Shown here: positions 14,850 through 64,000 of the stretch, piece after piece
Position numbering within the stretch: position 1 is the first letter of the stretch
Layout of the letters: each line of letters opens with the position of its first letter
DNA from: Eledone cirrhosa
Taxonomy: Eukaryota
Assembly: GCA_964016885.1 (NCBI GenBank)
Contig: OZ024743.1
Span: forward strand, 280,488,001-280,552,000
Reading direction: 5' to 3'
Length of the DNA: 64,000 bases
Position numbers and translations under genes: made by a program
The notes under the pieces: model-generated
Databases searched by the model: none
What the model was told of the DNA's origin: nothing
What the model saw: only the letters and a program-made list of their open reading frames with translations

Positions 14850-16539
14850 ATGGATGCCATTTCCACCTCGCACACTGTCGTGAGTGCCACGCCCATTAAG
14901 AAAAGTGGTGGAGGGAAGGTAGGAGTACAAAGCTTGCAGCCTTCCCCCCTCGCATTATCGAAAAACGTTGAAAATATTGAAACCACGAAACCAAACCCGG
15001 TAAATAATACCAGCACCAACAACAAGAACAATGACAATAACACCACAACCAACAACTGCAACAATAGCAACACCAAGGAAAACATGAACAATATTACCAA
15101 CAGTGACAGCAACAAAAAAGACAACACCAAAACAACATTCGCACAGACTGTAAAAAAAAACGAACTATACACGCCAAGAGACATAACAATTGCTAAACAA
15201 CTATTACAAGACGCAAAACAATTCGTGACGTTTGGCGAAAACGGTGCTTTTAGCATCAATTCTCCACAGGAACTACGTAGAGAAGCTGTCCTTAAAACTG
15301 TGGTTTTCAGGACAATATCGAACGAGACAAGAAAACCAGCTCAATTATCACAAAATGAAATTGAGCTGGTTCTAAAAGATGCAATGAAGGACTTAAACTT
15401 CATACAAAAAGGTAAACTGTTTGGTAGCATTTCGGTGCTAATGAACAATCAGTCAACAGCACAAAAGTACTCGGTATCACCCATTGTGTCCCCCCACTTC
15501 ACCTTTTTCCCCACATACAGGGGGGAAAAGGACACAAAGAATAAAAATAATGAGTATCACACCAAATGTAAATATTTGGTGGATACTATGTGGAATCATT
15601 GACTATGACGAAGACAAGATAATTTCAATAGGAAAGTCCTCCAGAGGTGTATTTGGTGGGACCAGCGTAGAAGTTCTGGTGCAAAGGAGCCCAGAACGAA
15701 TAGCGAATATCCCACAACGCATGCCTCTGGACGGGCTAACTTATAGAAACATTTCAGTGGGGGGAAGGCGGCCGTCATGTTACCACTGCTTAAGCAGGGG
15801 TCGCCTGGGGGCTGCCTGTCCTCAATTAACGAGTCAAAAAAAAAGGCTCTTCTGCCAACCCCGAACACAACAACACAGCCACCACCACCACCACCACAAC
15901 AACAACAACAACAACAACAACAACCACAACAACACGGAAAAATAACAACACAAAACACTGTTCCACCCAACCCCTCCCCACCTAAAACAAATACAAAAGC
16001 AACCACAACAAAACCCCAAAATATACCCCTCCCCAACAACACGGAAGAGGACTCCGTATCAACGTCACCCAGTGACGACGAGGGAGAAGCCTTTCAACAG
16101 GTGAAAAGGAAAAAGAAAGGCACCACATTAACAAAACTGCCACAAACACACAACCACCATCACAAACAGAACAAACATCACAAATAAAAAAACTCACCCC
16201 TCCCTAAAACATAACACGTACTACAAAACGCAAACACGCACAAGAACAACAAACAAAAACAATACACAACGCAACAAAAACTCTATACATACATTAACAA
16301 GAACAATAAAACGTTGATGAAAACAGTAGAAAATAACCCTTCGGTGGAAACCACTTAACAGCACCAAACCACTTAACAGCGTCCTATTGAGATGTTTCCC
16401 CACCCCCACACCAGACACCCACACCCCACCAAACACCCTAATCCCACCACACACTGATGTCCTCACCCCACCAAACACCCCTTCCAACACCCCCATGTAA
16501 ATTGTGCAACCTGGTCCCAGGAGACGAATAGGTAAGTAA
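14850..16539 (+). pseudogene. Tx1 ORF1 (zinc-knuckle nucleic acid chaperone), frameshifted
   Basis: ORF pieces 14841-15602, 15484-15945 and 15777-16187; degenerate knuckle CYHCLSRGRLGAAC; ends GGTAAGTAA like copies B and C. Confidence 0.8.
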
Positions 16540-16577
16540 TTTCCTTTCCTCTTCCTTTTTAACTCTTCAGCACCAAC

Positions 16578-19500
16578 ATGGCCAATATAAGAGTTGGATG
16601 TGTAAATGCACGCGGCCTGGGGATGTCCTGGAAACAGGGCAAACTCTTAAATGACCTCAGGTTGCACAGAGTGGATGTAATGGTTATTTGCGAGTCCAGG
16701 ATCAGCAGCGAGCGCCAACTGGCCCCCTTCTTCGACGACTTTGAGATCTACGCATCTCTCTGTCAGCCGAGGGGTGGGGGTGGGGTTGTCGTTCTGCTGC
16801 GAAAATACCTGGGTCTTGCCACACAGAAGGTACACCTGGACCCGGAGGGTCGACTGGTGGTTTTAGACGTCGGCAGTGGTGAAGGTGAAGCTTTCAGGCT
16901 GGTGGCAGCGTATGCCCCATCTGGGACACCGCGACCGGACTTCTTCCGACGCCTGGAGAATTTCCTGGGAACGTCTCGCTCCTTGCTTCTAGTGGGGGAC
17001 TGGAATGGTATCCTGGATGCACGTTGGGACTATGTAGCGGCATGTCCCGATAGAGGGGGGTGTAACAGCCTCAAACAATTAATCGGCCGATTTGATCTGG
17101 CCGATAGATATCAACTAGATTTTCCGACTGTGCCACTGTGGACGTGGACTAATCGCAGCGGAACATCTAGGTCGTACCTAGATAGGTTCCTAGTTAGAAA
17201 TAAGGATAGGGACATATTAAGCTGTCCACGAATGTTCATGGTTGACTATTCGGATCACAAGTTGGTGACCGGAGTGGTCAAACTTGATAGAACTCATAGA
17301 CAGGGACCCGGTTACTGGAAGCTTAACTTGTCTTTGCCGACAAACAAAGCTTTTAGTAAGCGGATTAGCACACTAGTTAAGCAGCGTTTGACGGGGGCAA
17401 TTATCAACAGCAGGTGGTGGGGCTCTCTCAAGATAGAAATTAGAATAGAATTGATAGGTTTTAGTCGGGAATTAGCATCAGATAGGGATAGAACTGAAAG
17501 GGAATTAACAAATAGAGTAGAAGAGGCGATTAGGAGTGAAAACGTGGCCGGCGTGCTGGCGTCAAGAACGGCCCTAGACTAGTTCTTTGATGCGAAGCAC
17601 GAGAGCTGCGTTGTCAGGAGTAAAATACGTGCTCTGGGTAACGAGAGAGCCAAAGCTGTTAGCTGGGCCCGAGTGACAGAGGCAAAAGGTGGAAACAAGT
17701 CCACGATTCGGTCTTTGAAGGACCAGGATGGACGCGTGATCCTTGAACCTGAGCGGATGAACGCGGCCTTTCAACGGCGCTTTGCACGACTGTTCGGTAG
17801 GGGCGGCGGGCCGGGTGGGGCCATGGATTTCGGTCCATACCTCGACGGTCTGGCGCGGCTCTCGGACGGGGAGGCGAAGTCCTGCGAGAGGCCGATTTCA
17901 GCCGCTGAAATAGGGGAAGCGCTGAGCCAATGCGGCAAACGCAAATCTCCGGGTCTCGATGGTCTACCATACGAACTTTATGTAGCGATGCCGGGCTTGT
18001 TCTCCGGTCTCCTCGAGGCGGTCTACTGCAACTGGCAACAGAACGGGAGAATTCCCAGTTCTGTGACCAAGGGCGTAGTCACGCTGGTGAGGAAGGACGA
18101 GAACAAGGGGGATGACATAGATAACTTCAGGCCCATAACTCTGCTAAACACAGAGTTAAAGATTTTGGCCAAGGTATTAGCGAAGAGGTTGGCGCTTGTC
18201 GTGGGGAACCTGATGGGAGAAGCGCAGACATGCGCAATCCCGTCCAGGTCCATACACGACAACCTCCACCTCATGCGATACATCGTAGAGAGGGTGGGGA
18301 ACGAACCCGGCTTTGGTGGGGCCCTGATCAACTTCGATCAATCTAAGGCGTTCGATAGGGTTGACTATCGGTACCTGGATGCGGTGCTCGCGGCGGCAGG
18401 CTTCGGACCCGTTTTCAGGGGTTGGATTGCTGCAATGCACAGTAGCAACACCTGCTCGAGGGTCAAGGTGAACGGCTACCTCTCGGAGCCGTTCCAATCA
18501 CGCGATCCATCCGACAGGGATGCCCTCTCTCCTCTCTCCTGTATGTGCTGGCTCTCGAGCCACTACTGCGGAAGCTGGAGCTGTTGCAGGGCATACCCTT
18601 TGAACCGGGATTGCGGAAAGCGGTGTCGGCCTACGCCGATGACGTGACAGTAATGGTGTCGTGCGCCTCGGAAATCGGGCAGATCGGCACCTTACTGGAG
18701 GAATATGAAAGGTTGACAGGAGCCAAGTTGAACCGGGACAAGTCCGTCGGTTTGCAACTAGGGACGTGGAGGGGCAAAACGATGCCCTCCGACGGCATCG
18801 TCGGACGCTGGACGGAAGGATCGGTGAAGCTGCTCGGGGTCTGGTTCGGACCGGACTTCCAGGTGGAGAAAAACTGGGACGAGGTAACGGGCAAGGTGTT
18901 TGCACTCGCCGAGTGCAAACTATCCTTGAAAGGTCGAGCGGAGGTGGCGAACGCTTATATAGCGTCCGTCATCTACTACCTCTTGACCGTCGTGCTTTGC
19001 CCAGAGAAAACACTCGCCAAAATGGAGCGCGCGCTCTTCCGATTTCTTTGGAAGAAGCGGGCTCCTTTGGTGAGAAGATCCATCTGCTGTCAACACCCTT
19101 CGAACGGAAGGAGGGGATGCCATGGCTGACGATGCGTAGACACGCATTAAGGCTACGGCACCTCCAGGTATTCCTCACCGGTCAGCCGGTGTGGGCCCTG
19201 TTTGTGAGGCGAGCCTTTCCGAGACTCGTCTCACTCACCGAGCTGCAATCCTGGGTCAAGCAAAGACCGAGAAAAGTGGGCGACTGGCACATTGAATGTG
19301 CCCAGGCGCTCACCATCCTCTGGCAAGCGGATCCGGCAATCAGTGGAGACTCAACCTCAACATTCTATAGAGGGTTGGTGCGCAGTAATTGCGACGACGC
19401 TCTCGGAGAGGCTCTGGGCATGGAGGAAGATGAGCTGGCCAGTCTGTTCGGTAGAACGTTTGGCCCGGGACCGATGGACAACTTCCAAAAGTCCCTGGCT

Positions 19501-28878: not shown

Positions 28879-30650
28879 ATGGCTGAGCCACGCCCCACCC
28901 CACCCCACAGCGATATGTTGGCTGTCGTGCGACAACGACGTAGAAGTATAGAGGAGCGCTACAGCGAAATTAACACACATTGATAACACAAGCACCACCA
29001 CAAACAATGTAAACAAAGACACCAATGATACCAATGAGAACTCTAATTTTGAAAAAAATGACAGTAACAGCGACAACGAAAATACAGATAACGAAAAAAA
29101 ATACAGATAACAAAAAAAAAAATATCAAATACAACAACAATATCAACACCACTAACATGAAAACAAATAGCGACAACACCAACAGCAACAATACCAACTG
29201 CACCGAGAACAACGGTGGCAACAAAGGCAACAATTATAACAGCGACAGTGCTAACAACAACACCAACAAGAACAACGACAAAGACCACAACACCCCCAAC
29301 GAAAACAAGGAGAACACTTTCGCTGCGGCAGCAGCAAAAAAGAGGCCATGCTTCAACATGGACCTCTCAAACAAAGATGAAAAGTTGGCCCAGGCATGGA
29401 AGCTCATCAAGCAAGAGCAAACCTGGGCCAACTCAACTGTCCCGGTAGAAGCTATTGAGGCAGTGGAGCGCAGAACGGTGCATTATAGATGCATCTCAGC
29501 ACAAACCAAAAGGGCAGCTTTAATCCCACAAGAAGATGTCGAAATCGCGCTGAGGTGCATCAGAGAAGACACCCAGTACATAGAGAGGGGCAGACAGTAC
29601 GGCACCATTTCGGTGTTGTTCAAGTCAGAAGCCCTCGCTATGAAACACGCTATGACTCCTTGCAAAACCAGCAAGGTCATAATGTACCCCTTCCACATGG
29701 GAAAAAGAACGGCCCGTCTCCGCATTCAGTGTTTTGTTTGTGGGGAAAAAACCCATTTGGGAGCCTTCTGCCCTCAACTGTTGAAAGAGGCAAAGGGTCG
29801 AAAGGCTCCACTGCTTTCGACGCCGGGGCGAGGACCACAACCAACACCAGTACCGGCAAAATCACCAACAACAACACCAATAGAAAGACCACCACCAACA
29901 TTGACCACCCAGCGGGGAAACGAGGAAAGCTGTCAAATTCCCCCTCCCCCCCCCAAAAAAAATACACACACCAATAAAACCATAAACATACATACAGACA
30001 CACTTACAGACACAGACCCCTCATCTACCAGTAGTGAAGATGAGGGAAAACCAAAATCCCCAAAATACAAAAAAGGAAACACAAAAAGAAAAAAAAACTC
30101 AACAAAGCACAAAATCACCCACAATGAAAAACGCAGAAACCACCCACGAAAACATCTCTCCAATAACACCAACATCAACACCACCATCACCATCACCAGA
30201 ATCCCCCAAACGCAAGAACAAATATACATACAAAGATCTGAAACCACAGACACCGCACTCACAACAAACACAGATACAACCGAAACAACACCACCAAAAC
30301 CATCACCACCACAGCCACGCAAACAAATAAAATCACACCAACAAAACATACAAAACTTCGTGCTCGTCAGGAGGGCCAACAAGGAACTGATGACCCTCGT
30401 AGCACGAAGTGAAAATATACAAAAAGAGGGGGACATTTTTAAATCGAGCACATTTCGTGTGCCGGAAGATTTGGTTCTAGTGCGAATGTCGCTCGACATA
30501 TTCAACGAAATACGAGACAGCTTTCCTCGGGACGTGGGAGCCCCGAACGTAAAACCCACTTCAAGACTTTTAAAGGGGTTCCCAAAAGAAACCCCACCAA
30601 CTATGGAGGTCGAACAACCCGACCTTCACAAGAGCCCGGAAGGTAAGTAA
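28879..30650 (+). pseudogene. Tx1 ORF1, frameshifted with internal deletion
   Basis: MAEPRP start out of frame with ORF 29025-30650; CCHC CFVCGEKTHLGAFC; lacks about 77 aa present in copy C. Confidence 0.85.
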
Positions 30651-30681
30651 ACCTTCCTCTCTCTTTGTTTAACCTGCCAAC

Positions 30682-33600
30682 ATGGCCGTATTAAGAGTAG
30701 GATGTTTAATTGTTCGAGGCCTGGGATCGTCCTGGAAGCAGGGTCACCTGCTCAACAACCTCGGGTCTATAGAAATGGATGTAATTGTAGTCAGCGAGAC
30801 CAGGTATCCGACACGCGCGCACTAGCCCCCATTTTCGACGACTATCAGATCTTTGCATCTGTTAACCGGCCAGGAATGGGAGGCGGGGTGGCAGTGCTGT
30901 TTAGGAAAGGCCTGGATCTCGAGGTAAGGTCGATCTTCCGGGACCCGGGCGGGAAGTTGGTGGTTCTGGACGTGAACAATAACGAAGGTGGTGCCTTTAG
31001 ACTGGTGGCCATCTATGCTCCTACTGGGGCAGGACGGCCGGACTTCTTTAGACGCCTGGAAGCCTTTCTGGGTACGTCTCGCCCTTTACTGTTAGCGAGG
31101 GACTGGAATGGCATCTTAGACGCACGCTGGGACTGTGTGGGAGTATCCGATAGGAGCGGGGGGCGCAAAAGCCTCAAGAACCTGATCAGCCTGTTCCAAC
31201 TGTCTGACAGGTACCGACTAGATTTCCCTAATGCGCCAGCGTGGATCTGGGCTAACCGCATAGGGTCATCTAGATCGTATATAGACAGGATATTCATTAG
31301 GAAAATAGACAGAAATAGTGTAAGCTGTCCACGTTTTGAAACGGTCGCCTATTCAGATCACAAGTTTGTGATCTGTATGTTCGACCTAGATAAGACGCGT
31401 AGGTTAGCACCTGGTTACTGGAAGCTAAACATGTCATTTCCGGCACGTAAGGCTTACAGGGACCAGGTCAACAATTTAGTTAAGAAAAAGTTGACAGGGG
31501 GAGTCGTCAACAATAGATGGTGGGGGGCTCTCAAAAGAGAGATTAGAGTAATGTCGATAGAGTTTAGCAAAGAAGTAGCGTTAGAGAAAAATAGAAAGGA
31601 GGGGGAGTTGGTAGATAAGTTAGACGAGGCTATTGGTAGTGGCATTGCAACTGACGTGCTAGCGGCGAGAATGGCATTAGACCATTTCTTCAATGCGAAA
31701 CACGAAGGTTGCATTGTCAGAGCTAAGGCGCGTGCTCTGAGAAATGAGGGAACCAAAGCTGTTCGATGGGCCCGCGTGGCAGAGGCGCAGCGTGGTAATA
31801 AAACCACGATTCGGTCTTTGACGGACCGAGACGGGCACGAGCTGACCGATTCCAAGAGATGTGTGAGGCCTTTCGCCAACATTTTGCTCGGTTGTTCGGG
31901 GGAAGTGGCGAGTCAGATTAGGTGGCGTGTCAGAGATGGTGGCGGACTTCAGTCCCTATCTCGATGGCTTGCCGCAACTCTCAACGGCTGACGCTGGGCG
32001 CTGCGAAAGGCCAATTACTTCAGCCGAGATTCAGGATGCCCTTGTCGGCTGCATGAGGCGCAAGTCACCCGGTTTGGATGGTCTGTCCTACGAGCTTTAC
32101 GTAAATATGCCAGACTTGTTCTCCAATCTCCTCGAAGCTCTCTACTGCAACTGTCAGCAAAACGGGAGTATTCCCAGTTCTGTGAGATGGGGCGTAGTGA
32201 CGCTGATAAGGAAAGACGAGAAAAATAGGGACACATTAGACAATTTCAGGCCCATAACTCTGCTCAACACAGAGTTTAATATTTTGGCCAGGGTGTTAGC
32301 AAAGTGGTTGGCGCTTGTCGTCGGGGATTTGGTTAGGGAGGCGCAAACTTGCGCAATCCCAACCAAGTCCATACACGACAACCTCCACCTAATGCGATAC
32401 GTCATAGAGAGGGTAGGATGTAAACCTGGCTTCGGTGGGGCTCTGCTCAATTTAGATCAATCGAAAGCATTCGATAGGGTCGACCATCGGTACCTGGAAA
32501 GTGTCTTCAAGGCGGCTGGCTTCGGCCCTGTCTTCAGAGCTGGATCGCTGCAATGCACAGCGGCACCTGCTCGATGGTCAAAATTAATGGCCACCTCTCG
32601 GAACCGTTTCAGGTCTCCCGATCGGTCCATCAAGGGTGCTCTCTCTCTCTCCTCCCTTCTGTACGTATTGACTCTCGAGCCTTTACTGCGGAAGCTGGAG
32701 CTGTTGCAGAGCATCCCGCTCGAACCGAGACGCGGAAAGGCTGTGTCGGTTTATGCGGACGACATCACCGTGATGGTGGCGGACACCTCAGAAATCGAGG
32801 TGGTCGGCAACTTATTGGAGGAATGTGAAAGGTTGACGGGAGCAAAACTTAACACGGAAAAGTCAGTAGGCTTGCAAATAGGCACCTGGAGAGGCAAGTC
32901 CATGCCGTCCAACAGCGTCGTTAGGCGCTGGACGGACGGACCGGTAAAGTTGCTAGGGGTTTGGTTCGGGCCAGACCTCCAGGTGGATAAGAATTGGGAC
33001 GAGGTGACGGGCAGGGTAGCCAGTCTCACCCAGAAATGGGCTGGGATGAAGCTATCACTGAGAGGTCGGGCGGAGGTGGCGAACGCGTACATCGCGTCCG
33101 TCATCTACTACCGTCTGACTATCGTCCCTTGCCCCCGTTCGCGCCTCGCCATCTTGGAGCGGCTTTTCTTCAAATTCTTGTGGAGGGGTCAGGTTCCGCT
33201 GGTGAGGCGGTCCATCTGCTGCCAGCACCCTCTACGTGGAGCGCTGGGCATGCCGTGGTTAATGATGCGCAGGCACGCGCTGAGGCTGCGGCATCTCCAG
33301 AATTTCTGCCTAAACGGTGAACAGGTGTGGTCGCCGTTTGTCAGACGGGCCTTTCCGCAGCTCGTTTCCTTGACTGAGCTGCAGTCCTGGGTCAAGAAGA
33401 GACTGAGACTGGGTGACTGGCATCTGGAATGTTTCCAGGCACTCACTGCCCTCTACCAGGCGGGCAATGCGGTCAGTGGAACTTCCACTCTCGAGTTCAA
33501 ATAGAGGATTAGTGGTGGGAAAGTGCGACGACGCATTCGGAGAGGCTCTGGGAGTCAACGAAGTCGAACTAACCAGTCTGTACCGGAGGACTTTCGAACC

Positions 33601-38133: not shown

Positions 38134-41100
38134 GTTATTGTTATTCCTTGAATCTCAGTCATTGATGTTGGTTAACTGGAAAGTCCGTTGGATTGAATAT
38201 CAAGCCACTACCTGCAGCCTCAGATATTCAGGACGTATCGGAGGGTTCTTGCTGTTCCAAGCAAGCATGCCTTTTGAAGCGTTCCAAAAAGCGTGAAGGG
38301 GCCGATTTTCTTTAACGATCCCTGGAAACTTTTGGAGATAGTCCCCAGTGCGCCTATGACAATCGGGATCACTTTGACTTCATGGCAGTTCCAAATCCTT
38401 TTCATCTCCCACTTTAGGTCCTGGTATCGGTTAATTTTCTCCCTCTCCTTCTCCTGCACTCTCGTGTCGAACGGGCAGGCCACATCCACAATCAGGCACG
38501 ATCTTTTTTCTTTGTCCACAACCACCAGGTCAGGTCTATTGTGTTCCAGTTTTTTGTCCGTCTGTATCCTAAAATCCCACAGCACCTTCACCTGTTTGTT
38601 CTCCATCACCGCCTCTGGCCTATGCTCATACCATTTCTCAGAATGTGGTAGATTGTTTACTTTGCACAGGTGCCAGTGGATCACCCTGCCCATCACATCG
38701 TGTCTCCAGCCCTTATAGTGGGTCTGGGCTAGGTGTTTACACTCGGACACAATGTGAGCCACAGTCTCCTCTCTCTCTCCACAGATCCTGCACAGTGGGC
38801 TAGCCTCCTCCTTGTAGATATGGTGCTTCAACCACTTCGTTTTGAGGGCCTGCTCCTGCGCAGCCATTAGCATTCCTTCTGTAGCCTTTTTGAGGTCTCC
38901 TCTTCTCAACCAGTTCCATGTCTGTGGATCTCTAAATTCAGTTTTCTCAAAGAAGGTACTATGAAGGGATTTTCCCTTAAGGCTGCTCTTCCTCCTTGAT
39001 GTTATTTCCTCCCTGGACATCCCCTGGCCTACTGTCCCCTCCTTCAGTACAGTTCTGAGCATTGGCTCCTTACTATAGGTCACGTATTTGTATAGGTTGT
39101 TTTTCTCCATCTGAACACAGTCCTCTATGCTGATAAGACCTCTTCCACCCTCAGATCTCCTTAGGTAGAGTCTATCGACATCACTCCTCTTGTGGAACAT
39201 GTTGTAGATAGTCAATAGCTTCCTAGTCTTCCTATCCATTTCTTTTTGTTCAGCAACATTCCATCTCAGAATTCCCACACTGTACCTAATAATAGACACA
39301 GCTCGGGAATTTACTGCGCTTATGGCATTTCTGCTGTTCAGATGTGACTTCAATACGCTCCTTACTCTCCGAATGTATTCAGTTCTTAACAATTCCTTCA
39401 TTTTTTTGTTCTTTATGCCATCAGCCTCCAGAACGCCCAAATACTTGTATCCTTCCTCAGAGTCAATTTCCTTTATCATCTCACCTGTTGGTATCTGGAT
39501 CCCGTTACTTCTGCTCAACCTACCCCTCCTCATCACAATGACTCCACATTTACCAATACCAAACTGCATACATATATCACTGCTGAAAATACGGACAGTG
39601 TCAACAAGCACATCCAACTCCTTCTCACTTTTCCCGAAGAGCTTAAGATCGTCCATGAAGAGGAGGTGATTGATGGTAAGCTCTCCCCTTCCCAACTTGT
39701 ATCCTGCTCTCACTTTTCGCAGCATAATGGTCAAGGGCATCAGGGCAAGGACAAACAACAGAGGGGACAGGCTATCTCCCTGGAAGATACCTCTCTTGAT
39801 CTTCACGCTTCCCAAGGATACTCCAGTTGATGTCAACTCTGTCTCCCAGGACCCCATACTCCTGCCTAGCAACTGTCTGATGTTATCTGCCACCCTGAAG
39901 ATCTCCAGGCTTTTGGTGATCCAGGAATGAGGCACCATGTCAAATGCCTTTCTGTAGTCTATCCATCCCATGGCAAGATCAGTGTGTCTCCTCCTGCAAT
40001 TCCCCATTACCATCTTATCAATAAGCAACTGGTCCTTTGTACCACGTGACTTCTTTCGGCATCCTTTCTGTTCGTCCGGTAACAAGTTGTTTGTGTGGAG
40101 GTGATGGTAGATTTCCTCAGACACAATGCTCGTCAACAGTTTCCACATTACGGGCAGACATGTGATAGGTCTATAGTTGGTAGCATCATTACCCTTGATT
40201 CGGTCTTTCATTATCAGAACTGTGGTACCTTTTGTCAACCACTCTGGCACCTCACCCGACACCAAGCAGTCATTGAACATGGCCGTCAGCTTCGGGTGGA
40301 GGGATGTTAGATGTTTAATCCAATACCCCTGCACACCATCTGGGCCTGGTGATTTCCAGTTGGTTAGTTTTTTGGCTTGCCCCTTAAGAGTTTCAACTGT
40401 GATACTCAAATCAGTCTGTTGCTGTGCCTGCTCACCGATCTCCCTCTGTACTGTCTCAATCCACCCTGCCTGGGCATTGTGTCTAACATCCTGCTCCCAT
40501 ATTCCTCTCCAGAATGTTTTAGTTTGTTCCGCCCCAGGGATCAAGTCGTTGCCTCTTTCTTTGCCCTCAAGCTGTCCAAACAGCATCTTCTGGTTGTTGT
40601 CGAACATGCGGTTCTGTTTATACTGACTGACTCTGTTCTCGTATCGCCTGATTTTTGCACTCTTTGCTACAATGCGTTGCTTCAATTCCTCTATGATAAT
40701 ATTTAGCTTTTTACTCCTAGTTTTGTATTTTATTTCCAGTCTATTTTTAGTGCCTATGTTTTTTAGTGTCCCATTCAGTAGGGACTCAAGCTTTCCTATG
40801 TCATTTCTCATTTCCCCGATTTGCCCACTCAGTCGCTTCTTCCACCACGGCTCTGCTCTTTCTTGTCTGTTGTTTCCTCTCGCTTTTATACCAAGTAGTT
40901 TCCTCACCGTATTTGCTGTTGCTCTGAGGATATTGTTGCACTGGTGAAGGCTCCTCGCCTCAAGGTATGGGATGACTTTGTTTACCTTAGCTGTTGTTTC
41001 TTTTAACTTTTTCCTGTCTACAAATCTTAGGTTCATAGGTCTCCCACTATCATTGTTCAATTCATCTACTACTAAGTTTAGGATGTCAACCGAATCTTGT

Positions 41101-41728
41101 CCTAGCCCGTCAGCATTCATCTCCTCAGTGGCCGTATCTCTGTTCCAGGTATTATTTATCTCAGTACTCAGATCATTGTCTGCTTCGGGTGGTTCCTCCG
41201 TTCTCAGGACCTCCTCACCTTCATTTCCCACCGGCTCGCTTGTCTGGCATACTACACCCGCCATCTCCAAGCCATTCTCTCTGCTCAGTTCCTCCAGTTC
41301 CAGCTCGCTTATCCACCCATTAGTTCTTATTACCCGAGCCTGCCCGGCCAATTTTTGTTCATCTAATTTAAATAAACCAATCTCGTTCCAGATGTTATGC
41401 ATCCGTCTCCTGTAGCCCCTCTCCTTGGGGTTACTTTTCAGGTAGCATTGCATAACAGTTCTATTCAATTCTTTCGTCCAGTTGGTTCTGGCCCCTTTCC
41501 TTCTTCTCCTTCCTCCAACATCAGCAGTATTTGGTTGACAGTCAGGTTCCTGCTGCTGAGCCAGGGGGCACCTGTTGGGTGAGAGTCTGTCACATGACGT
41601 TCTAGTCTCCATTTCACCGTTATTCGAACTGTTTATGTTCGATATTTAAACACTCTTATCGAGGATTGGCGAATGTATGTTTACATAGCCATCTGTGGAT
41701 CCGCCATCCCACTTGGCCCTTGTGTGGC
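38134..41728 (-). mobile_element. Apparently full-length R4/Dong-like non-LTR retrotransposon
   Basis: Single long ORF; short 3'UTR ending in AATAACAATAAC(AAT)n; 5' boundary approximate. Confidence 0.9.
38220..41612 (-). CDS. RT plus CCHC plus restriction-like endonuclease polyprotein, 1130 aa, intact
   Basis: [81 protein letters not shown]. Confidence 0.95.
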   Translation of the reverse strand: METRTSCDRLSPNRCPLAQQQEPDCQPNTADVGGRRRRKGARTNWTKELNRTVMQCYLKSNPKERGYRRRMHNIWNEIGLFKLDEQKLAGQARVIRTNGWISELELEELSRENGLEMAGVVCQTSEPVGNEGEEVLRTEEPPEADNDLSTEINNTWNRDTATEEMNADGLGQDSVDILNLVVDELNNDSGRPMNLRFVDRKKLKETTAKVNKVIPYLEARSLHQCNNILRATANTVRKLLGIKARGNNRQERAEPWWKKRLSGQIGEMRNDIGKLESLLNGTLKNIGTKNRLEIKYKTRSKKLNIIIEELKQRIVAKSAKIRRYENRVSQYKQNRMFDNNQKMLFGQLEGKERGNDLIPGAEQTKTFWRGIWEQDVRHNAQAGWIETVQREIGEQAQQQTDLSITVETLKGQAKKLTNWKSPGPDGVQGYWIKHLTSLHPKLTAMFNDCLVSGEVPEWLTKGTTVLIMKDRIKGNDATNYRPITCLPVMWKLLTSIVSEEIYHHLHTNNLLPDEQKGCRKKSRGTKDQLLIDKMVMGNCRRRHTDLAMGWIDYRKAFDMVPHSWITKSLEIFRVADNIRQLLGRSMGSWETELTSTGVSLGSVKIKRGIFQGDSLSPLLFVLALMPLTIMLRKVRAGYKLGRGELTINHLLFMDDLKLFGKSEKELDVLVDTVRIFSSDICMQFGIGKCGVIVMRRGRLSRSNGIQIPTGEMIKEIDSEEGYKYLGVLEADGIKNKKMKELLRTEYIRRVRSVLKSHLNSRNAISAVNSRAVSIIRYSVGILRWNVAEQKEMDRKTRKLLTIYNMFHKRSDVDRLYLRRSEGGRGLISIEDCVQMEKNNLYKYVTYSKEPMLRTVLKEGTVGQGMSREEITSRRKSSLKGKSLHSTFFEKTEFRDPQTWNWLRRGDLKKATEGMLMAAQEQALKTKWLKHHIYKEEASPLCRICGEREETVAHIVSECKHLAQTHYKGWRHDVMGRVIHWHLCKVNNLPHSEKWYEHRPEAVMENKQVKVLWDFRIQTDKKLEHNRPDLVVVDKEKRSCLIVDVACPFDTRVQEKEREKINRYQDLKWEMKRIWNCHEVKVIPIVIGALGTISKSFQGSLKKIGPFTLFGTLQKACLLGTARTLRYVLNI

Positions 41729-56185: not shown

Positions 56186-56352
56186 GTGTACCATTATTAT
56201 TATTATTATTATTATTGACGAAAGTGGATGTACGTTTTTTGAAGCTCCGTGAGTAAGCAATTTTTGAGGATTAATTGTAGAGAATTGTTTATTTTTTGTA
56301 CCGCTGAAGCATTATAAGACATTAATTTGTATCCTGTGAAGGAATAACTCAT

Positions 56353-56380
56353 AATATTTGGGCCTTTTGGCCCAAATATT
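56353..56380 (+). promoter_or_regulatory. Conserved 5'UTR stem-loop of Tx1 element
   Basis: AATATTTGGGCC-TTTT-GGCCCAAATATT, identical at 28806-28833; different-sequence hairpin at 14788-14810. Confidence 0.7.
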
Positions 56381-56425
56381 TGAACTTTATTTTGAAAAAA
56401 ATAATAATTTTTTTCTCAAAAAAAC

Positions 56426-58336
56426 ATGGCGGAGCCACGCCCCCTAGAGGCGGGTCTGCTGTCGTGCAACGGCGACTTGAGCGTTGAGAGGAGAGGTGAG
56501 GCGAGGAGCGCCACCAGCACGAATGTGAGCAGCGACAGTGCCAGCACCAACGGGCCGAGCGGCGCGGAAGGTGGTAACAGCGACAACACCAACACCAACA
56601 AGCCGAACAGCGCAGAAGGTGGTAATAGCGAGAGCACCAACAAAACGAACAGCACAGAGAGTAATAGTAGCGACAGCAGCAGCACCAACAAGGCCAACAG
56701 CACAGAAGGTAACCACGACACAGGGGAGAACAACAACAGCAATAGCAGCAGCAACACCAACAAGAACAACAACAGTGACAACACCAACAAGAACACTTTC
56801 GCTGCTGTGGCAGCGGCTAAAAGGAGACCATGCTACAGCATCGACTTAACCAACAGAGAGGAAAAGTTGGCCCAGGCCTGGAAAATCATAAATCAAGAGC
56901 AGACCTGGGCAAACTTAACTGTCCCGGCAGAAGCCATTGAGGCAGTGGAAAAAAGAACGGTGCATTTCAGATGCATCTCAGTAGAGACAAAGAGGGCAGC
57001 GATAATCGCCCAAGCTGACATAGAAGCCGCACTGAAATACATCAGAGAGGACACAGACTTCATAGAGAGGGGCAGGCAATACGGCACCGTTTCGGTGCTG
57101 TTCAAGTCTGAAGCCCTCGCTGTGAAGCATTCAATGACCCCTTGCAAAACCAGCAAGGTCATAATGTACCCCTCCCACATGGGAAAACGAATAGCACGTG
57201 TGCGCATTCCCAGGATTCCACCAGGACTTGATATGTGGTGGCTCCTGGGTTGCGTAATCGTGGAAGGAACGGATACAGTCCCGGTAGAGGCAACGAGAAC
57301 TGCCAGGGACGACTGGTCCGGGGTTGATCTGGAGATACTGCTCCAAATCAGACCCGAAAACGTAAAAACAATCCCGGACCACATCCGCCTCCAAAACGGG
57401 AGGGTGTTGCATATAATGACTGAGGGCAAAAGGCCGCATTGTTTCCTTTGTGGGGAAACGACACACTTGCGAGCCTTCTGCCCTCAACTGCCGAAAAGCG
57501 CAAGGGGTCGAAAGATTCCACTGCTGGCGACGCCGGGACAAGGACCACCAGCAACACCGTCAACAATGGAACCACCAAAATTGCACACCCAGGAGGGAAA
57601 CGAGGAAAGCTCTCCCATTCCCCCTCCCCCCCAAAATACACACACGAACAAGAACATAAACACTCACTCAGACACAAACACGCTCACAGCCACAGACCCC
57701 TCATCCTCCAGCAGTGAAGATGAGGGAAAACCAAAGTCCCCCAAAATACAAAAAACAAAACACAAAAAAAAAAGAAATCCACAAAGCACAAACACCCCCC
57801 CCAAAAAAAATACACACACCACCCACACAAACATTTTCCCCACAGCATCACCAACACAACCACCAAAATCCCCCAAACGCAAACAAGCTAAACAGACACA
57901 AGAACAAATAGACACACAAACATCAGAAACTACAGACACCCCACCCACAACAAACGCAGACACAATAGAAACAACACTAACAAAGCTATCACCACCACAA
58001 TCACACGAACAAATAAAACCCGAGCAACAAAACATTAAAAACTTCGTGCTTGCCAGAAGGGCCAACAAGGAATTGATGGCCCATGTAGCACGAAGCACAA
58101 ACATCGAAAAAGACGGGGAAACATTTGAAGCGAGCACATTTCGCGTACCAGATAATTTGCTTCTGATGCGAATGTCGCTCGCTTCATACAAAGAAATTCG
58201 AAAGAGCTTTCCTCGGGATGTGGGAACCCCGAACGTAAAACCCACGTCAAGACTATTAAAGGGGTTCCCAAAAGAAACCCCACAAACCATGGAGGTCGAA
58301 CCACCCGACCTTCACAAGACCCCGGAAGGTAAGTAA
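56426..58336 (+). CDS. Tx1 ORF1 protein, 636 aa (S/N-rich repeats, CCHC zinc knuckle, P/T/K-rich tail)
   Basis: Open frame; CFLCGETTHLRAFC fits CX2CX4HX4C; homologous to copies A and B. Confidence 0.92.
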   Translation: MAEPRPLEAGLLSCNGDLSVERRGEARSATSTNVSSDSASTNGPSGAEGGNSDNTNTNKPNSAEGGNSESTNKTNSTESNSSDSSSTNKANSTEGNHDTGENNNSNSSSNTNKNNNSDNTNKNTFAAVAAAKRRPCYSIDLTNREEKLAQAWKIINQEQTWANLTVPAEAIEAVEKRTVHFRCISVETKRAAIIAQADIEAALKYIREDTDFIERGRQYGTVSVLFKSEALAVKHSMTPCKTSKVIMYPSHMGKRIARVRIPRIPPGLDMWWLLGCVIVEGTDTVPVEATRTARDDWSGVDLEILLQIRPENVKTIPDHIRLQNGRVLHIMTEGKRPHCFLCGETTHLRAFCPQLPKSARGRKIPLLATPGQGPPATPSTMEPPKLHTQEGNEESSPIPPPPQNTHTNKNINTHSDTNTLTATDPSSSSSEDEGKPKSPKIQKTKHKKKRNPQSTNTPPKKNTHTTHTNIFPTASPTQPPKSPKRKQAKQTQEQIDTQTSETTDTPPTTNADTIETTLTKLSPPQSHEQIKPEQQNIKNFVLARRANKELMAHVARSTNIEKDGETFEASTFRVPDNLLLMRMSLASYKEIRKSFPRDVGTPNVKPTSRLLKGFPKETPQTMEVEPPDLHKTPEGK

Positions 58337-58365
58337 ACCTTTCCTCTCCCATTCATCCTGCCAGC

Positions 58366-61300
58366 ATGGCCATAAGAGTAGGAAGTTTAAATGTTCGTGG
58401 CCTGGGGTCGCCCTGGAAGCAAGGTCACTTGCTCAACGACCTCAGGTCACTAGGAATGGATGTAATTGCCATCAGCGAGACCAGAATTTCCGACACACGC
58501 GCACTGGCGCCGATTTTCGACGATTATCAGATCTTTGCATCTGTTAGTCGGCCGGGAATGGGAGGTGGAGTGGCTGTGCTGTTTAGGAAATGTCTGGATC
58601 TCGAGGTAAGGTCAATCTTCCGGGATCCTGACGGAAAGTTGGTGGTCCTGGACGTGAGCAATAGCGAAGGTGGTGCCTTTAGACTGGTGGCCGTCTACGC
58701 CCCTACTGGGGCCGGTCGGCCGGACTTCTTTAGGCGCCTGGAAAACTTTCTGCTTACGTCTCGCCCTTTACTGTTAATAGGGGATTGGAATGGCATCTTA
58801 GAAGCACGCTGGGATTGTGTGGGAGTATCTGATAGGAGCGGGGGGTGCAAAAGCCTCAAGTACCTGATCAGCCAGTTTCAACTGTCTGACAGGTACCGAC
58901 TAGATTTCCCTAATGCGCCAGTATGGACCTGGACCAATCGCATAGGGTCATCTAGATCGTACATAGATAGGATTTTCATTAGGAAAAGAGATAGAAATAG
59001 TGTAGGATGTCCACATTTTAAAACGGTTGCCTATTCAGATCACAAGCTTGTGATCTGTATGGTCGACCTAGATAAGACACGTAGGTTAGGACCTAGCTAC
59101 TGGAAGCTAAACATGTCGTTTCCGGCACGTAAAGCTTACAGGGACCGGGTCAACAACTTAGTTAAGCAAAAGTTGACAGGGGGGGTTGTCAACAACAGGT
59201 GGTGGGGGGCACTCAAAAGAGAGATTAGAGCAACCTCGATAGGATTTAGCAAAGAAGTAGCAATAGAGAAAAATAGAAAGGAGGAGGGGCTGATAGCTAA
59301 GTTAGACGAGGCTATTTGTAGTGGCATTGCAACAGACGTGCTAGCGGCGAGAATGGCACTAGACCATTTCTTCAATGCGAAACACGAAGGTTGCATTGTC
59401 AGAGCTAAGGCGCGTGCTCTGAGGAACGAGGGAACCAAAGCTGCCCGATGGGCTCGCTTTGCAGAGACGCAGCGTGGAAATAAAACCACAATTCGGTCTT
59501 TGACGGATCGAGATGGACACGAACTGAGCGATTCCAAGCGGATGTGTGAGGCCTTTCGCCAGCACTTTGCTCGATTGTTCGGGAGGATGGGTGAGTCGGA
59601 GACGGCGGCGGACTTCAGTCCCTACCTCGACGGCTTGCCACGCCTCTCGACGGCCGACGCTGGGCGCTGCGAAGAGCCGATAACATCAGCCGAAATTCAG
59701 GACGCCCTTGTCGGCTGCTCGAGTCGCAAGTCACCCGGTTTGGATGGTCTGCCCTACGAGCTTTACGTAAATATGCCAGACTTGTTCTCCGATCTCCTCG
59801 AAGCGCTCTACTGCAACTGGCAGCAGAACGGGAGCATTCCCAGTTCTGTGAGCCGTGGCGTAGTGACGCTGATAAGGAAAGACGAGAACAAGAGGGACAC
59901 ACTAGATAATTTCAGGCCCATAACCCTGCTCAACACAGAGTTTAAGATTTTGGCCAAGGTGTTAGCGAAAAGGTTGGCGCTTGTCGTCAAAGATTTGGTT
60001 GGGGAGGCGCAAACTTGCGCAATCCCGACCAGGTCCATACACGACAACCTCCACCTCATGCGATACATCATAGAGAGGGTTGGGTGCAAACCTGGCTTCG
60101 GTGGGGCTCTGATCAATTTAGATCAATCGAAAGCATTCGATAGGGTCGACCATCGGTACTTGGAGGCTGTCCTCGAGGCGGCTGGCTTCGGCCCCGTCTT
60201 CAGAAGCTGGATCGCTGCAATGTACAGCGGCATCCGCTCGGTGGTCAAAGTTAATGGCCACCTCTCGGAACCGTTTCAGATCTCTCGATCGGTCCGTCAA
60301 GGATGCCCTCTCTCCTCACTTCTGTACGTATTGACTCTTGAGCCTCTACTGCGGAAGCTGGAGTTGTTGCAGGGCATCCCGCTCGAACCGGGACGTAGAA
60401 AGGCTGCGTCCGCTTATGCGGACGACATCACCGTGATGGTGTCGGACACCTCGGAAATCGAGGTGATCCGCACCCATTTGGAGGAATATGAAAGGTTGAC
60501 GGGAGCAAAACTTAACCCGGAAAAGTCGGTGGGCTTGCAGCTCGGCACCTGGAGAGGCAAGTCCATGCCGTCCAACAGCGTCGTTGGGCGCTGGACAGAC
60601 GGACCGGTAAAGTTGCTCGGGGTTTGGTTCGGACCAGACCTCCAGGTGGATAAGAATTGGGACGAGGTGACGAGCAGGATAGCCAACCTCACCCAGAAAT
60701 GGGCGGAGAGAAAGCTATCACTGAAAGGGCGGGCGGAGGTGGCGAACGCGTACATCGCGTCCGTCATCTACTACCGCCTGACCGTCGTGCCTTGCCCCCG
60801 TCCACGCCTCGCCAATTTGGAACGGCTCCTTTTCAAATTTTTGTGGAGGGGACGGGTCCCGTTGGTGAGGCGGTCCATCTGCTGCCAGCACCCTCTTCGT
60901 GGAGGGCTGGGCATGCCGTGGCTAATGATGCGCAGACATGCGCTGAGGCTGCGACATCTCCAGATATTTTGCCTAAACGGTGAACAGGTGTGGTCGCCGT
61001 TTGTTAGACGGGCCTTTCCGCAGCTCATCTCTTTGACTGAGCTGCAGTCCTGGGTCAAGAAGAGACCGAGACTGGGCGACTGGCATCTGGAATGTTGCCA
61101 GGCGCTCACTGCACTCTGCAAGGTGGGCAATGCGGTCAGTGGAACTTCCACTCAAGATTTCTATAGAGGATTAGTGGAGGGCAAGTGCGATGACGTACTA
61201 GGAGAGGCTCTGGGCGTCAACGAAGTAGAACTGACCAGTATGTTCCGGAGGACTTTCGAGCCGGGGACGATGGATAACTTCCAGAAATCCCTCGCTTGGC

Positions 61301-61785
61301 AGTGCTACCGGGGGGCGCTGCCGGTTCGGGATAAACTCTACAGGCACGGAAGTGCTGTCAGACGAACCTGCCCGAGATGCGCGCAGAGCGACGAAACCGT
61401 TCTGCACGCACTCGTCCAGTGTCCGTGCATTGCTGACTTGTGGGGTTATGTCGAACAGCTATTGTCGCGTGTAGAACGGATCCGGCTATCGTCCGAGTCC
61501 ATAGTGAAGATTGACCCGCCGCCTTCTTTTGGTCAGGAAGGGCAGGCAATTTTCCTCTGCCTGGTGGCAGTAGCGAAAGAGGTTGCATGGTGGACCAGGT
61601 TGAAAGGACTGAAGACAGACACTTTTCTCTTCGGCCAATCCCTCATCAACTTCTTCAAGTTTCACTTGGAAAGGAAGGTGAGGGTGGAGAGAGAAGTGCT
61701 GCCCCCCAGTACATTTACTGAAAGGTGGGTGAATGTGGCGAGAATGGCCCGCGTGAGTGGGCCTACTCTGATCATGCGCCTGTAG
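58366..61785 (+). CDS. Tx1 ORF2 protein, 1139 aa (AP endonuclease, reverse transcriptase, Cys/His finger)
   Basis: SLNVRG, ISET, VYAP, GDWN, IDR, SDH; KSPGLDG, FRPITLLN, LDQSKAFD, QGCPLS, YADD; CPRC..ETVLHALVQC. Confidence 0.97.
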   Translation: MAIRVGSLNVRGLGSPWKQGHLLNDLRSLGMDVIAISETRISDTRALAPIFDDYQIFASVSRPGMGGGVAVLFRKCLDLEVRSIFRDPDGKLVVLDVSNSEGGAFRLVAVYAPTGAGRPDFFRRLENFLLTSRPLLLIGDWNGILEARWDCVGVSDRSGGCKSLKYLISQFQLSDRYRLDFPNAPVWTWTNRIGSSRSYIDRIFIRKRDRNSVGCPHFKTVAYSDHKLVICMVDLDKTRRLGPSYWKLNMSFPARKAYRDRVNNLVKQKLTGGVVNNRWWGALKREIRATSIGFSKEVAIEKNRKEEGLIAKLDEAICSGIATDVLAARMALDHFFNAKHEGCIVRAKARALRNEGTKAARWARFAETQRGNKTTIRSLTDRDGHELSDSKRMCEAFRQHFARLFGRMGESETAADFSPYLDGLPRLSTADAGRCEEPITSAEIQDALVGCSSRKSPGLDGLPYELYVNMPDLFSDLLEALYCNWQQNGSIPSSVSRGVVTLIRKDENKRDTLDNFRPITLLNTEFKILAKVLAKRLALVVKDLVGEAQTCAIPTRSIHDNLHLMRYIIERVGCKPGFGGALINLDQSKAFDRVDHRYLEAVLEAAGFGPVFRSWIAAMYSGIRSVVKVNGHLSEPFQISRSVRQGCPLSSLLYVLTLEPLLRKLELLQGIPLEPGRRKAASAYADDITVMVSDTSEIEVIRTHLEEYERLTGAKLNPEKSVGLQLGTWRGKSMPSNSVVGRWTDGPVKLLGVWFGPDLQVDKNWDEVTSRIANLTQKWAERKLSLKGRAEVANAYIASVIYYRLTVVPCPRPRLANLERLLFKFLWRGRVPLVRRSICCQHPLRGGLGMPWLMMRRHALRLRHLQIFCLNGEQVWSPFVRRAFPQLISLTELQSWVKKRPRLGDWHLECCQALTALCKVGNAVSGTSTQDFYRGLVEGKCDDVLGEALGVNEVELTSMFRRTFEPGTMDNFQKSLAWQCYRGALPVRDKLYRHGSAVRRTCPRCAQSDETVLHALVQCPCIADLWGYVEQLLSRVERIRLSSESIVKIDPPPSFGQEGQAIFLCLVAVAKEVAWWTRLKGLKTDTFLFGQSLINFFKFHLERKVRVEREVLPPSTFTERWVNVARMARVSGPTLIMRL

Positions 61786-62065
61786 GCTGGTGAATTCGAG
61801 AAGGAGAGGGGTGCCCTTCCCGGGTGCCCTAGGAGCGTCGGGTGGCTCAGGACTGGTGGGGTGCTTGAGTCAACCCTGGGTGGTGATCCCTCTTATTGGG
61901 GAACTTTCATTGTTGTATTTTTATTGTTATTTTGTTTTTGTTTTTTTGTTATTTATACTTACTCGATCTCTATGTAAACCCCCACTGTCCCTGTCTATTG
62001 TGTTGTCCCCTATATGTCGGCCCTTGTGGCCAATAAATGAAATCATTATTATTATTATTATTATT

Positions 62066-64000
62066 GTTATTGTTATTCCTTGAATCTCAGTCATTGATGT
62101 TGGTTAACTGGAAAGTCCGTTGGATTGAATATCAAGCCACTACCTGCAGCCTCAGATATTCAGGACGTATCGGAGGGTTCTTGCCGTTCCAAGCAAGCAT
62201 GCCTTTTGAAGCGTTCCAAAAAGCGTGGAGGGGCCGATTTTCTTTAACCATCCCTGGAAACCTTTGGAGATAGTCCCCAGTGCGCCTATGACAATCGGGA
62301 TCACTTTGACTTCATGGCAGTTCCAAATCCTTTTCACCTCCCACTTTAGGTCCTGGTATCGGTTAATTTTCTCCCTCTCCTTCTCTTGCACTCTCGTGTC
62401 GAACGGGCAGGCCACATCCACAATCAGGCACGATCTTTTTTCTTTGTCCACAACCACCAGGTCAGGTCTATTGTGTTCCAGTTTTTTGTCCGTCTGTATC
62501 CTAAAATCCCACAGCACCTTCACCTGACTGTTCTCCATCACCGCCTCTGGCCTATGCTCATACCATTTCTCAGAATGTGGTAGATTGTTTACTTTGCACA
62601 GGTGCCAGTGGATCACCCTGCCCATCACATCGTGTCTCCAGCCCTTATAGTGGGTCTGGGCTAGGTGTTTACACTCGGACACAATGTGAGCCACAGTCTC
62701 CTCTCTCTCTCCACAGATCCTGCACAGTGGGCTAGCCTCCTCCTTGTAGATATGGTGCTTCAACCACTTCGTTTTGAGGGCCTGCTCCTGCGCAGCCATT
62801 AGCATTCCTTCTGTAGCCTTTTTGAGGTCTCCTCTTCTCAACCAGTTCCATGTCTGTGGATCTCTAAATTCAGTTTTCTCAAAGAAGGTACTATGAAGGG
62901 ATTTTCCCTTAAGGCTGCTCTTCCTCCTTGATGTTATTTCCTCCTTGGATATCCCCTGGCCTACTGTCCCCTCCTTCAGTACAGTTCTGAGCATTGGCTC
63001 CTTACTATAGGTCACGTATTTGTATAGGTTGTTTTTCTCCATCTGAACACAGTCCTCTATGCTGATAAGACCTCTTCCACCCTCAGATCTCCTTAGGTAG
63101 AGTCTATCGACATCACTCCTCTTGTGGAACATGTTGTAGATAGTCAATAGCTTCCTAGTCTTCCTATCCATTTCTTTTTGTTCAGCAACATTCCATCTCA
63201 GAATTCCCGCACTGTACCTAATAATAGACACAGCTCGGGAATTTACTGCGCTTATGGCATTTCTGCTGTTCAGATGTGACTTCAATACGCTCCTTACTCT
63301 CCGAATGTATTCAGTTCTTAACAATTCCTTCATTTTTTTGTTCTTTATGCCATCAGCCTCCAGAACGCCCAAATACTTGTATCCTTCCTCAGAGTCAATT
63401 TCCTTTATCATCTCACCTGTTGGTATCTGGATCCCGTTACTTCTGCTCAACCTACCCCTCTTCATCACAATGACTCCACATTTACCAATACCAAACTGCA
63501 TACATATATCACTGCTGAAAATACGGACAGTGTCAACAAGCACATCCAACTCCTTCTCACTTTTCCCGAAGAGCTTAAGATCGTCCATGAAGAGGAGGTG
63601 ATTGATGGTAAGCTCTCCCCTTCCCAACTTGTATCCTGCTCTCACTTTTCGCAGCATAATGGTCAAGGGCATCAGGGCAAGGACAAACAACAGAGGGGAC
63701 AGGCTATCTCCCTGGAAGATACCTCTCTTGATCTTCACGCTTCCCAAGGATACTCCAGTTGATGTCAACTCTGTCTCCCAGGACCCCATACTCCTGCCCA
63801 GCAACTGTCTGATGTTATCTGCCACCCTGAAGATCTCCAGGCTTTTGGTGATCCAGGAATGAGGCACCATGTCAAATGCCTTTCTGTAGTCTATCCATCC
63901 CATGGCAAGATCAGTGTGTCTCCTCCTGCAATTCCCCATTACCATCTTATCAATAAGCAACTGGTCCTTTGTACCACGTGACTTCTTTCGGCATCGTTTC
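62066..64000 (-). mobile_element. R4/Dong-like retrotransposon 3' half, running to the window edge
   Basis: Nearly identical to 38134-40068; tail-to-tail with Tx1 copy C. Confidence 0.93.
62152..63996 (-). CDS. RT-RLE polyprotein C-terminal part (open frame, partial)
   Basis: 602-aa ORF differing at only a handful of residues from 38220-41612. Confidence 0.9.

Follow-up and report, generated by a model that had tools for sequence, protein, structure and literature searches.

Why should a retrotransposon that carries two genes in tandem keep a consensus 5′ splice site at the end of the first? The question is raised by a 64,000-nucleotide (nt) stretch of the genome of Eledone cirrhosa (NCBI GenBank assembly GCA_964016885.1, contig OZ024743.1, positions 280,488,001 to 280,552,000 of the forward strand; hereafter the window, whose own numbering is used below). 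Three copies of a long interspersed nuclear element (LINE), labelled A, B and C and all full-length, lie in the window, which is part of a 3.0-Gb assembly. The element has two open reading frames (ORFs) and is of the type that encodes an apurinic/apyrimidinic endonuclease (APE) and a reverse transcriptase (RT). ORF1 protein is needed by LINEs in much larger amounts than ORF2 protein, a need that textbooks explain by inefficient reinitiation on one unspliced RNA. A first-pass annotation had read the splice-site motif as a selected binding site for U1 that could splice out ORF2, suppress premature polyadenylation, or work with the spacer between the ORFs as an acceptor for an ORF2-only messenger RNA (mRNA). 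We found that the motif is a real, selected feature and that it lies in a predicted long-range helix looping over ORF2. We propose, with a probability of roughly 0.5, that the donor and the helix together form a splicing switch that decides between an ORF1-only mRNA and the whole RNA.

The motif lies where it had been reported. The first intron G of the donor is at 16532, 30643 and 58329 in copies A, B and C, and the window contains only three AGGTAAGT on either strand. In copy C the motif spans 58326–58336 on the plus strand and is in phase 1, as in its lineage; the plus-strand segments that hold donor, spacer and ORF2 start are 16529–16578 in copy A and 30640–30682 in copy B. The earlier statement that ORF1 ends in G-K-stop in every copy describes the window copies as they read, but not the family of copy A. 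The family state is phase 2, and the window copy lacks 1 nt just upstream of the motif. Arg-stop is the end of the longest open frame in 26 of 30 A-type loci, with the TAA inside G-TAA-GT; of the remainder, two loci are in phase 1, one is in phase 0 and one could not be parsed. That A-type elements read the letters of the motif in another frame strengthens the finding.

How widely is the motif kept? A pattern anchored in the N-terminus of ORF2 alone gave 10,931 matches. Among the first 100 listed, tallied by eye, 94 have GTAAGT, GTGAGT or GTAGGT upstream of the ORF2 start, and the 6 starts without a donor resemble single decayed copies. For comparisons between lineages, 80 stretches from the first 63 Mb of contig C1 were hand-picked to represent the sub-lineages visible there, and the three window copies were added. 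These 83 copies fell into 20 clusters, and the ORF2 end was found in 67 of the 83. Twenty-five representatives were then hand-picked from the clusters, with subsets of 19 (pairing against other windows) and 21 (the join test), and donor phase was assigned by means of the longest open frame together with a conserved C-terminal motif. ORF2 identity among the sampled lineages goes down to 69%, and just 8 of 95 fourfold ORF2 sites are invariant (21 rows), whereas donor positions −1G, +1G, +2T and +6T occur in 25 of 25 lineages and +5G in 24 of 25. Positions +3 and +4 are only A or G, and the flanking positions vary freely.

The coding context of the motif is much less constant. Long open ORF1s run into the donor in every phase (phase 0, 613 codons in L132; phase 1, 640 in copy C; phase 2, 714 in L134), and phases 1 and 0 recur in separate clades of the ORF2 tree. 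In the phase-0 lineage F6, ORF1 continues 12 codons beyond the donor and no stop lies on the motif. A motif that straddles the ORF1 stop is thus common, but not obligatory. The consensus of U2-type 5′ splice sites is G|GTRAGT, and this is what is kept here independently of coding. Instead of synonymous variation of the form GGN AAR TAA, which would keep the peptide only, we found the motif kept across three frames. Because it is kept in three ORF1 frames and in a lineage with no stop on it, we conclude from these comparisons that the motif is selected as RNA and not as peptide. The proposal of a selected U1-type site is borne out to this extent, and U1 would presumably bind there. Among distant relatives (best segments mostly 23–31% identity) a donor lies on the ORF1 stop in 1 of 18, a metagenomic sequence. 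This relative (L154, 27% identity) has a phase-1 donor motif over its ORF1 stop at about 1925–1935, as copy C has, possibly by chance; pairing at its ORF2 stop, of the kind described next, is absent. A large group of ORF2 relatives has 37–45% identity (P0002–P0042).

The donor is embedded in sequence that is predicted to pair with the end of ORF2, a pairing that the first-pass annotation had missed. In copy C the 5′ arm (58319–58366, plus strand, 37 pairs) takes in the end of ORF1, the donor, the spacer and the A of the ORF2 ATG, and the 3′ arm (61781–61825, plus strand) takes in the ORF2 tail, its stop and the purine-rich start of the 3′ untranslated region (UTR). Across lineages the predicted helix begins some 20 nt within ORF1, takes in the donor and stops at the A of the ORF2 start codon; its partner, 3.4 kb from the donor, consists of the ORF2 tail, the stop and about 45–60 nt of 3′ UTR. 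In copies A and B the partner arm starts at the ORF2 stop (20001 and 34127, respectively). Duplexes of the spacer alone average −26.5 kcal/mol with the cognate partner and −21.4 kcal/mol with non-cognate partners, and at most 12 of 200 shuffles match the cognate duplex in any lineage. For the extended helix the values are −52.3 and −41.9 kcal/mol, a cognate advantage of 10.4; at 11 other offsets the cognate difference is −2.0 to +1.4 kcal/mol. Additionally, the true partner window ranks best of 540–571 in 17 of 19 lineages, cognate pairing is superior in 5 of 5 deeper lineage pairs, and spacer length correlates with arm length (rho 0.86, n = 25). Of the whole helix only the 6 top pairs could be aligned column by column; 3 of these have double changes, a number that 19 of 2000 row permutations also reached. 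Complementarity between the spacer region and the start of the 3′ UTR is, on these comparisons, lineage-matched beyond composition, except among close sister pairs, and we infer that the helix forms in vivo. Helix pairing at the ORF2 stop was seen in 0 of 7 distant relatives. The A of the ORF2 TAG (61784 and its homologues) is unpaired in the predicted helix in 8 of 8 TAG copies examined; editing of this A by ADAR was rejected for the copied RNA, as the 31 variants are 12 G, 16 T and 3 C, with no excess.

Where would a transcript cut at the donor be rejoined? In most lineages the ORF2 stop is TAG followed by G and stands behind a pyrimidine run. In copy C this candidate 3′ splice site (61762–61786, plus strand) has as its AG the last two letters of the ORF2 stop (61784–61785), which a home-made score places at rank 5 among 257 AGs; most copies in the larger (A) clade have the stop AG at ranks 1–7 of about 260. 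A join from the donor to the stop AG would excise exactly the spacer and ORF2. In copy C, ORF1 would then end two codons later. When each lineage is read in its own frame, a stop follows within 3 codons of the join in 13 of 21 lineages (8.5 when permuted; 12.6% at other AGs): 8 of 8 in phases 0 and 1, and 5 of 13 in phase 2. The join would leave the ORF1 protein unchanged in several lineages of phase 2. Cluster 1, in which the ORF2 stop is TAA, has no stop AG; it alone has a U-tract and CAG at the homologous 3′ UTR site, in 8 of 8 copies. This is a single contrast, in the predicted direction. The usual acceptor would probably be the ORF2-stop AG, or the 3′ UTR CAG in the TAA-stop lineage. A candidate about 60 nt before the ORF2 stop was rejected; it ranks 17–121 of about 260 and is accounted for by the protein sequence.

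Chimeric copies suggest that the donor is used in vivo. Four loci on three contigs (L260–L263, 92–94% alike) carry the 5′ module of cluster 2 up to the exact exon end at the donor, and continue with the end of a cluster-3-type ORF1. This second part begins at the base that follows a CAG (13 of 16 pyrimidines), and a cluster-3 ORF2 comes after it. In L260 the 5′ module amounts to only about 120 nt; L263 has indels and was for this reason placed with BLAST. A second junction of an exact exon end to a CAG was found in L217, a copy of the recipient type, 23 nt before that copy's own donor. In the junction region 2% of positions follow YAG, and both junctions retain the recipient's helix-forming segment. 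L260–L263 and L217 combine the 5′ module of one lineage with the ORF2 of another.

Several observations weigh against the proposed switch. No spliced joint at the donor was found among the 15 joints listed of 2,049, in runs of which none is recorded as RNA. Copies lacking ORF2 were found neither in family C nor in cluster 3, the A/F5/F9 types or the TAA lineage; the A/F5/F9-type and TAA-lineage searches gave 29 and 49 matches, mostly point or one-base variants, and nine were retrieved, among them L260–L263. Of the other five, L257 misses a 128-nt GT-AG splice by one base, the breaks in L258 and L259 do not correspond to splices, and unrelated DNA follows in L264 and L265. At each donor-to-CAG junction the two partners have a 2-nt AG in common, since the exon ends in AG, and template switching on this microhomology could have made the junctions. 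The stop AG ranks only 5–30 in the B/C/F7 clade and 5–15 in cluster 3, the join would append 28–44 or more residues in 8 of 13 phase-2 lineages, and the conserved ORF2 end and nearby stops are also explained by pairing and so are not independent of the helix. As for the helix itself, cognate pairing is superior in just 4 of 9 close sister pairs, an alignment fold retained only the 6 top pairs, and both arms are low in complexity. Finally, the lineages are kin and not independent, which makes our permutation p-values, such as 0.013 for the join test, too small.

Other searches bear on the same point. A 576-nt contig from run X4 (sequence kind not on record), identical to 58285–58860, crosses the donor unspliced. 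Contig depths and contig breaks at 58314 and 61722, suggestive at first sight, were not used, because depth cannot rank the parts of a gene and 58314 does not fit a join at 58328. Two gapped patterns found no copies without ORF2, although they catch just 14 of 67 and 17 of 61 simulated joins; a pattern that covers 8 of 67 simulated cases found no copy that skips ORF2 but keeps the spacer; and there was no family-C variant at 58315 among 18 matches. If ORF2 protein acts in cis, copies without ORF2 are not expected to be found. The suggestion that ORF2 can be spliced out is plausible and is our best reading of the sequences, but no junction read was seen.

Our model for the switch is as follows. 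U1 would engage the donor during transcription, and the acceptor and the 3′ helix arm would emerge together 3.4 kb later; before the 3′ UTR exists, the donor of copy C is predicted to lie in a local hairpin. If splicing came first, ORF2 would be lost and an ORF1-only message would result, whereas if the helix came first, the RNA would be kept whole for ORF2 translation and copying. As the helix would span the donor flanks and the stop-AG acceptor, and would form only after the 3′ UTR has been transcribed, it would compete with commitment of the spliceosome. We also propose that when transcription reads through an array of elements, a rare splice from the donor into the neighbouring copy may produce a chimera that retains an intact ORF2 and can be copied and spread. 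A broader hypothesis, which we hold only tentatively, is that this clade of LINEs controls its expression much as a retrovirus does, in that the helix clamps the ends of ORF2, masks both donor and acceptor and sets the ratio of ORF1-only to full-length RNA, and that splicing across arrays makes recombinant lineages with swapped 5′ modules. The many near-identical young copies of family C make the proposed splicing readily testable in RNA.

Could the donor bind U1 and yet rarely be spliced? It would then be a decoy or checkpoint: unfinished RNAs whose donor is exposed would be retained in the nucleus or spared early cleavage, while the helix would free those that reach the 3′ UTR. We consider this unlikely, even though the conservation and the helix fit it equally, the donor is invariant while the acceptor is not, copies without ORF2 were not found, and the export of an unspliced mRNA is inhibited when its 5′ splice-site motif is intact (PMC4380460, PMC9074902). 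Poly(A) signals in ORF2 are few, with no AATAAA between the donor and the ORF2 stop in 17 of 25 lineages and none within 600 nt of the donor in all 25, which also makes suppression of premature polyadenylation a weak explanation. The turnover of the acceptor in the TAA lineage and the donor-to-CAG chimeras point instead to real splicing. It is likewise improbable that the helix is purely a translation device, which places the ORF2 start beside the stop and the 3′ UTR for coupled reinitiation, with the donor a cryptic look-alike that arises from the stop codon and the pairing. The helix does terminate on the A of the ORF2 ATG, GTAAGT, GTGAGT and GTAGGT contain the three stop codons in phase 2, and in one lineage ORF2 starts at ATA; moreover, coupled translation of the SART1 ORF2 depends on structure close to the ORF1 stop (PMC5972666), and tombusvirus readthrough is controlled by a 3.5-kb pairing (PMC3542737). 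However, the motif persists in phases 1 and 0, where it holds no stop, and it stays constant while positions +2 to +4 are bulged out of the predicted helix in about half of the lineages and the partner sequence varies. A role in translation can coexist with the splicing switch.

Two further explanations involve the pyrimidine-rich spacer (58337–58365 in copy C, plus strand), and we think both very improbable. One is a short intron that fuses ORF1 and ORF2 in frame, in favour of which the three window copies, if read in phase 1, have in-frame AGs 50–62 nt past the donor. The donor is in phase 0, 1 or 2 but the AGs are fixed in ORF2, so that fusion cannot be general; additionally, nearly all lineages keep an ORF2 ATG of their own. 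The donor lies just 27–47 nt from the ORF2 start, less than a typical intron needs, and a 36-nt intron in copy C would be out of frame with ORF2, as the first-pass annotation had noted. The other is that a donor in the 5′ UTR is spliced to an acceptor in the spacer, which would yield an ORF2-only mRNA. A donor-like hexamer is indeed found in the 5′ UTR of copy C at 56249, and a spacer AG is present in 7 of 20 clusters. In the other 13 clusters, though, no copy has an AG in the spacer, and where AGs occur they are 1, 7, 9 or 19 nt before the ORF2 start. The CAG reported at the end of the spacer is present at 58364 in copy C and at 16570 in copy A, with CAA in copy B, but the CAGs of A and C are not homologous, being 7 nt (A) and 1 nt (C) from the ATG; that of copy C is matched by its UTR partner in the predicted helix. 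The spacer is thus no general acceptor, and its pyrimidine tract is accounted for as part of the 5′ arm of the predicted helix. The donor-like hexamer of copy C (56249–56254) may mark a retained 5′ UTR intron, and many of 13 copies inspected have a similar hexamer in their first 100 nt or so.

Known systems provide parallels for parts of this arrangement. In the Ty1/copia element EVD of Arabidopsis, a U1-type donor at the end of the structural gene gives a short gag mRNA and an excess of structural protein over enzyme (PMC5580714). A U1-type donor motif is likewise kept where ORF1 ends in the elements described here, and would serve the same purpose. EVD has long terminal repeats (LTRs) and a single gag-pol frame, and its short intron goes with coupled early termination (PMC5580714), whereas here we have a two-ORF LINE, a 3.4-kb candidate intron that is ORF2, a normal poly(A) site and a predicted long-range helix; there is no single gag-pol frame, and the absence of AATAAA in the 600 nt past the donor applies to all 25 lineages. 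The element is a functional analogue of copia short-gag splicing, not a member of that group. Human L1 has a functional donor in its 5′ UTR, possibly masked, rather than at the ORF1 end, and its spliced RNAs occasionally become genomic copies; these spliced integrated retrotransposed elements (SpIREs) are termed dead ends that inhibit transposition (PMC5860796). The candidate spliced copies here are, unlike SpIREs, chimeras of two lineages at several loci.

Long-distance pairing has viral precedents. In tombusviruses and luteoviruses, the region next to an internal stop base-pairs with a 3′ element at a distance of about 3.5 kb, which drives readthrough or frameshifting (PMC3542737). The pairing here is also beside an internal stop, but it is predicted and contains a splice donor, and as the frame from the ORF1 stop to the ATG is not conserved, readthrough is unlikely. 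SART1 and human L1, which use termination-reinitiation, share with our elements a bicistronic RNA with a short spacer, and ORF2 is probably translated by reinitiation on unspliced RNA here too; the excerpted account of them mentions neither pairing with the 3′ UTR nor a donor at the ORF1 stop (PMC5972666). A published annotation of octopus repeats names L1-Tx1, and the excerpt contains neither ‘splic’ nor ‘ORF1’ (PMC13282606). No description of such an architecture in a LINE was found in the titles and abstract openings searched, a coverage that leaves out most subscription journals. If the switch is real, a donor preserved through frame changes, together with a co-evolving 3.4-kb helix, would be a second solution to the problem of the ORF1:ORF2 ratio, parallel to copia gag splicing. 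It would also offer a concrete route to the swapping of 5′ modules between lineages; in human L1, splicing is treated as harmful.

Copy C is a young, full-length L1/Tx1-type element (56217–62044, plus strand) bounded by (ATT)n runs. Its ORF1 (56426–58336, plus strand) encodes 636 amino acids (aa) with a CCHC-like knuckle recognized by eye; a Pfam search with this protein gave no match. ORF2 (58366–61785, plus strand; 1139 aa) has an APE-type endonuclease, a reverse transcriptase and a zf-RVT domain (PF03372, PF00078 and PF13966), the set that characterizes LINEs of the L1 clade and Tx1 group. The two ORFs, the absence of LTRs and a 3′ tail past the poly(A) signal are those of a LINE. The element is provisionally assigned to Tx1, the label given to it in the first-pass annotation. 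Most copies viewed end in (ATT)n or (ATCT)n (by eye, uncounted), which agrees with a preference for microsatellite targets. Kibi and Koshi (Tx1) are likewise APE-RT LINEs inserted in simple repeats, although the targets here, (ATT)n or (ATCT)n, differ from those in the excerpted account (PMC4494074). The youth of family C is apparent from the genomic matches, as all 40 listed are identical across the 251-nt ORF1/ORF2 junction.

Family C also forms head-to-tail arrays with a 5,840-bp period and (ATT)n between the units (L031; G000:C1 near 423.37–423.42 Mb). Mixed arrays occur as well, and (ATCT)n is used by lineages other than C. Copies of an unrelated RT element lie just downstream of copies B and C (38220–41612 and 62152–64000, both on the minus strand), one of them with an intact 1130-aa ORF. 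In lineage F6 (L117, L118, L130, L131, L132 and L221) ORF2 starts with ATA in 6 of 6 copies, with no upstream in-frame ATG. The ORF2 of L118 is open for 1146 codons, and the terminal branches of F6 are very short. These features suggest non-AUG initiation of ORF2 in a young lineage.

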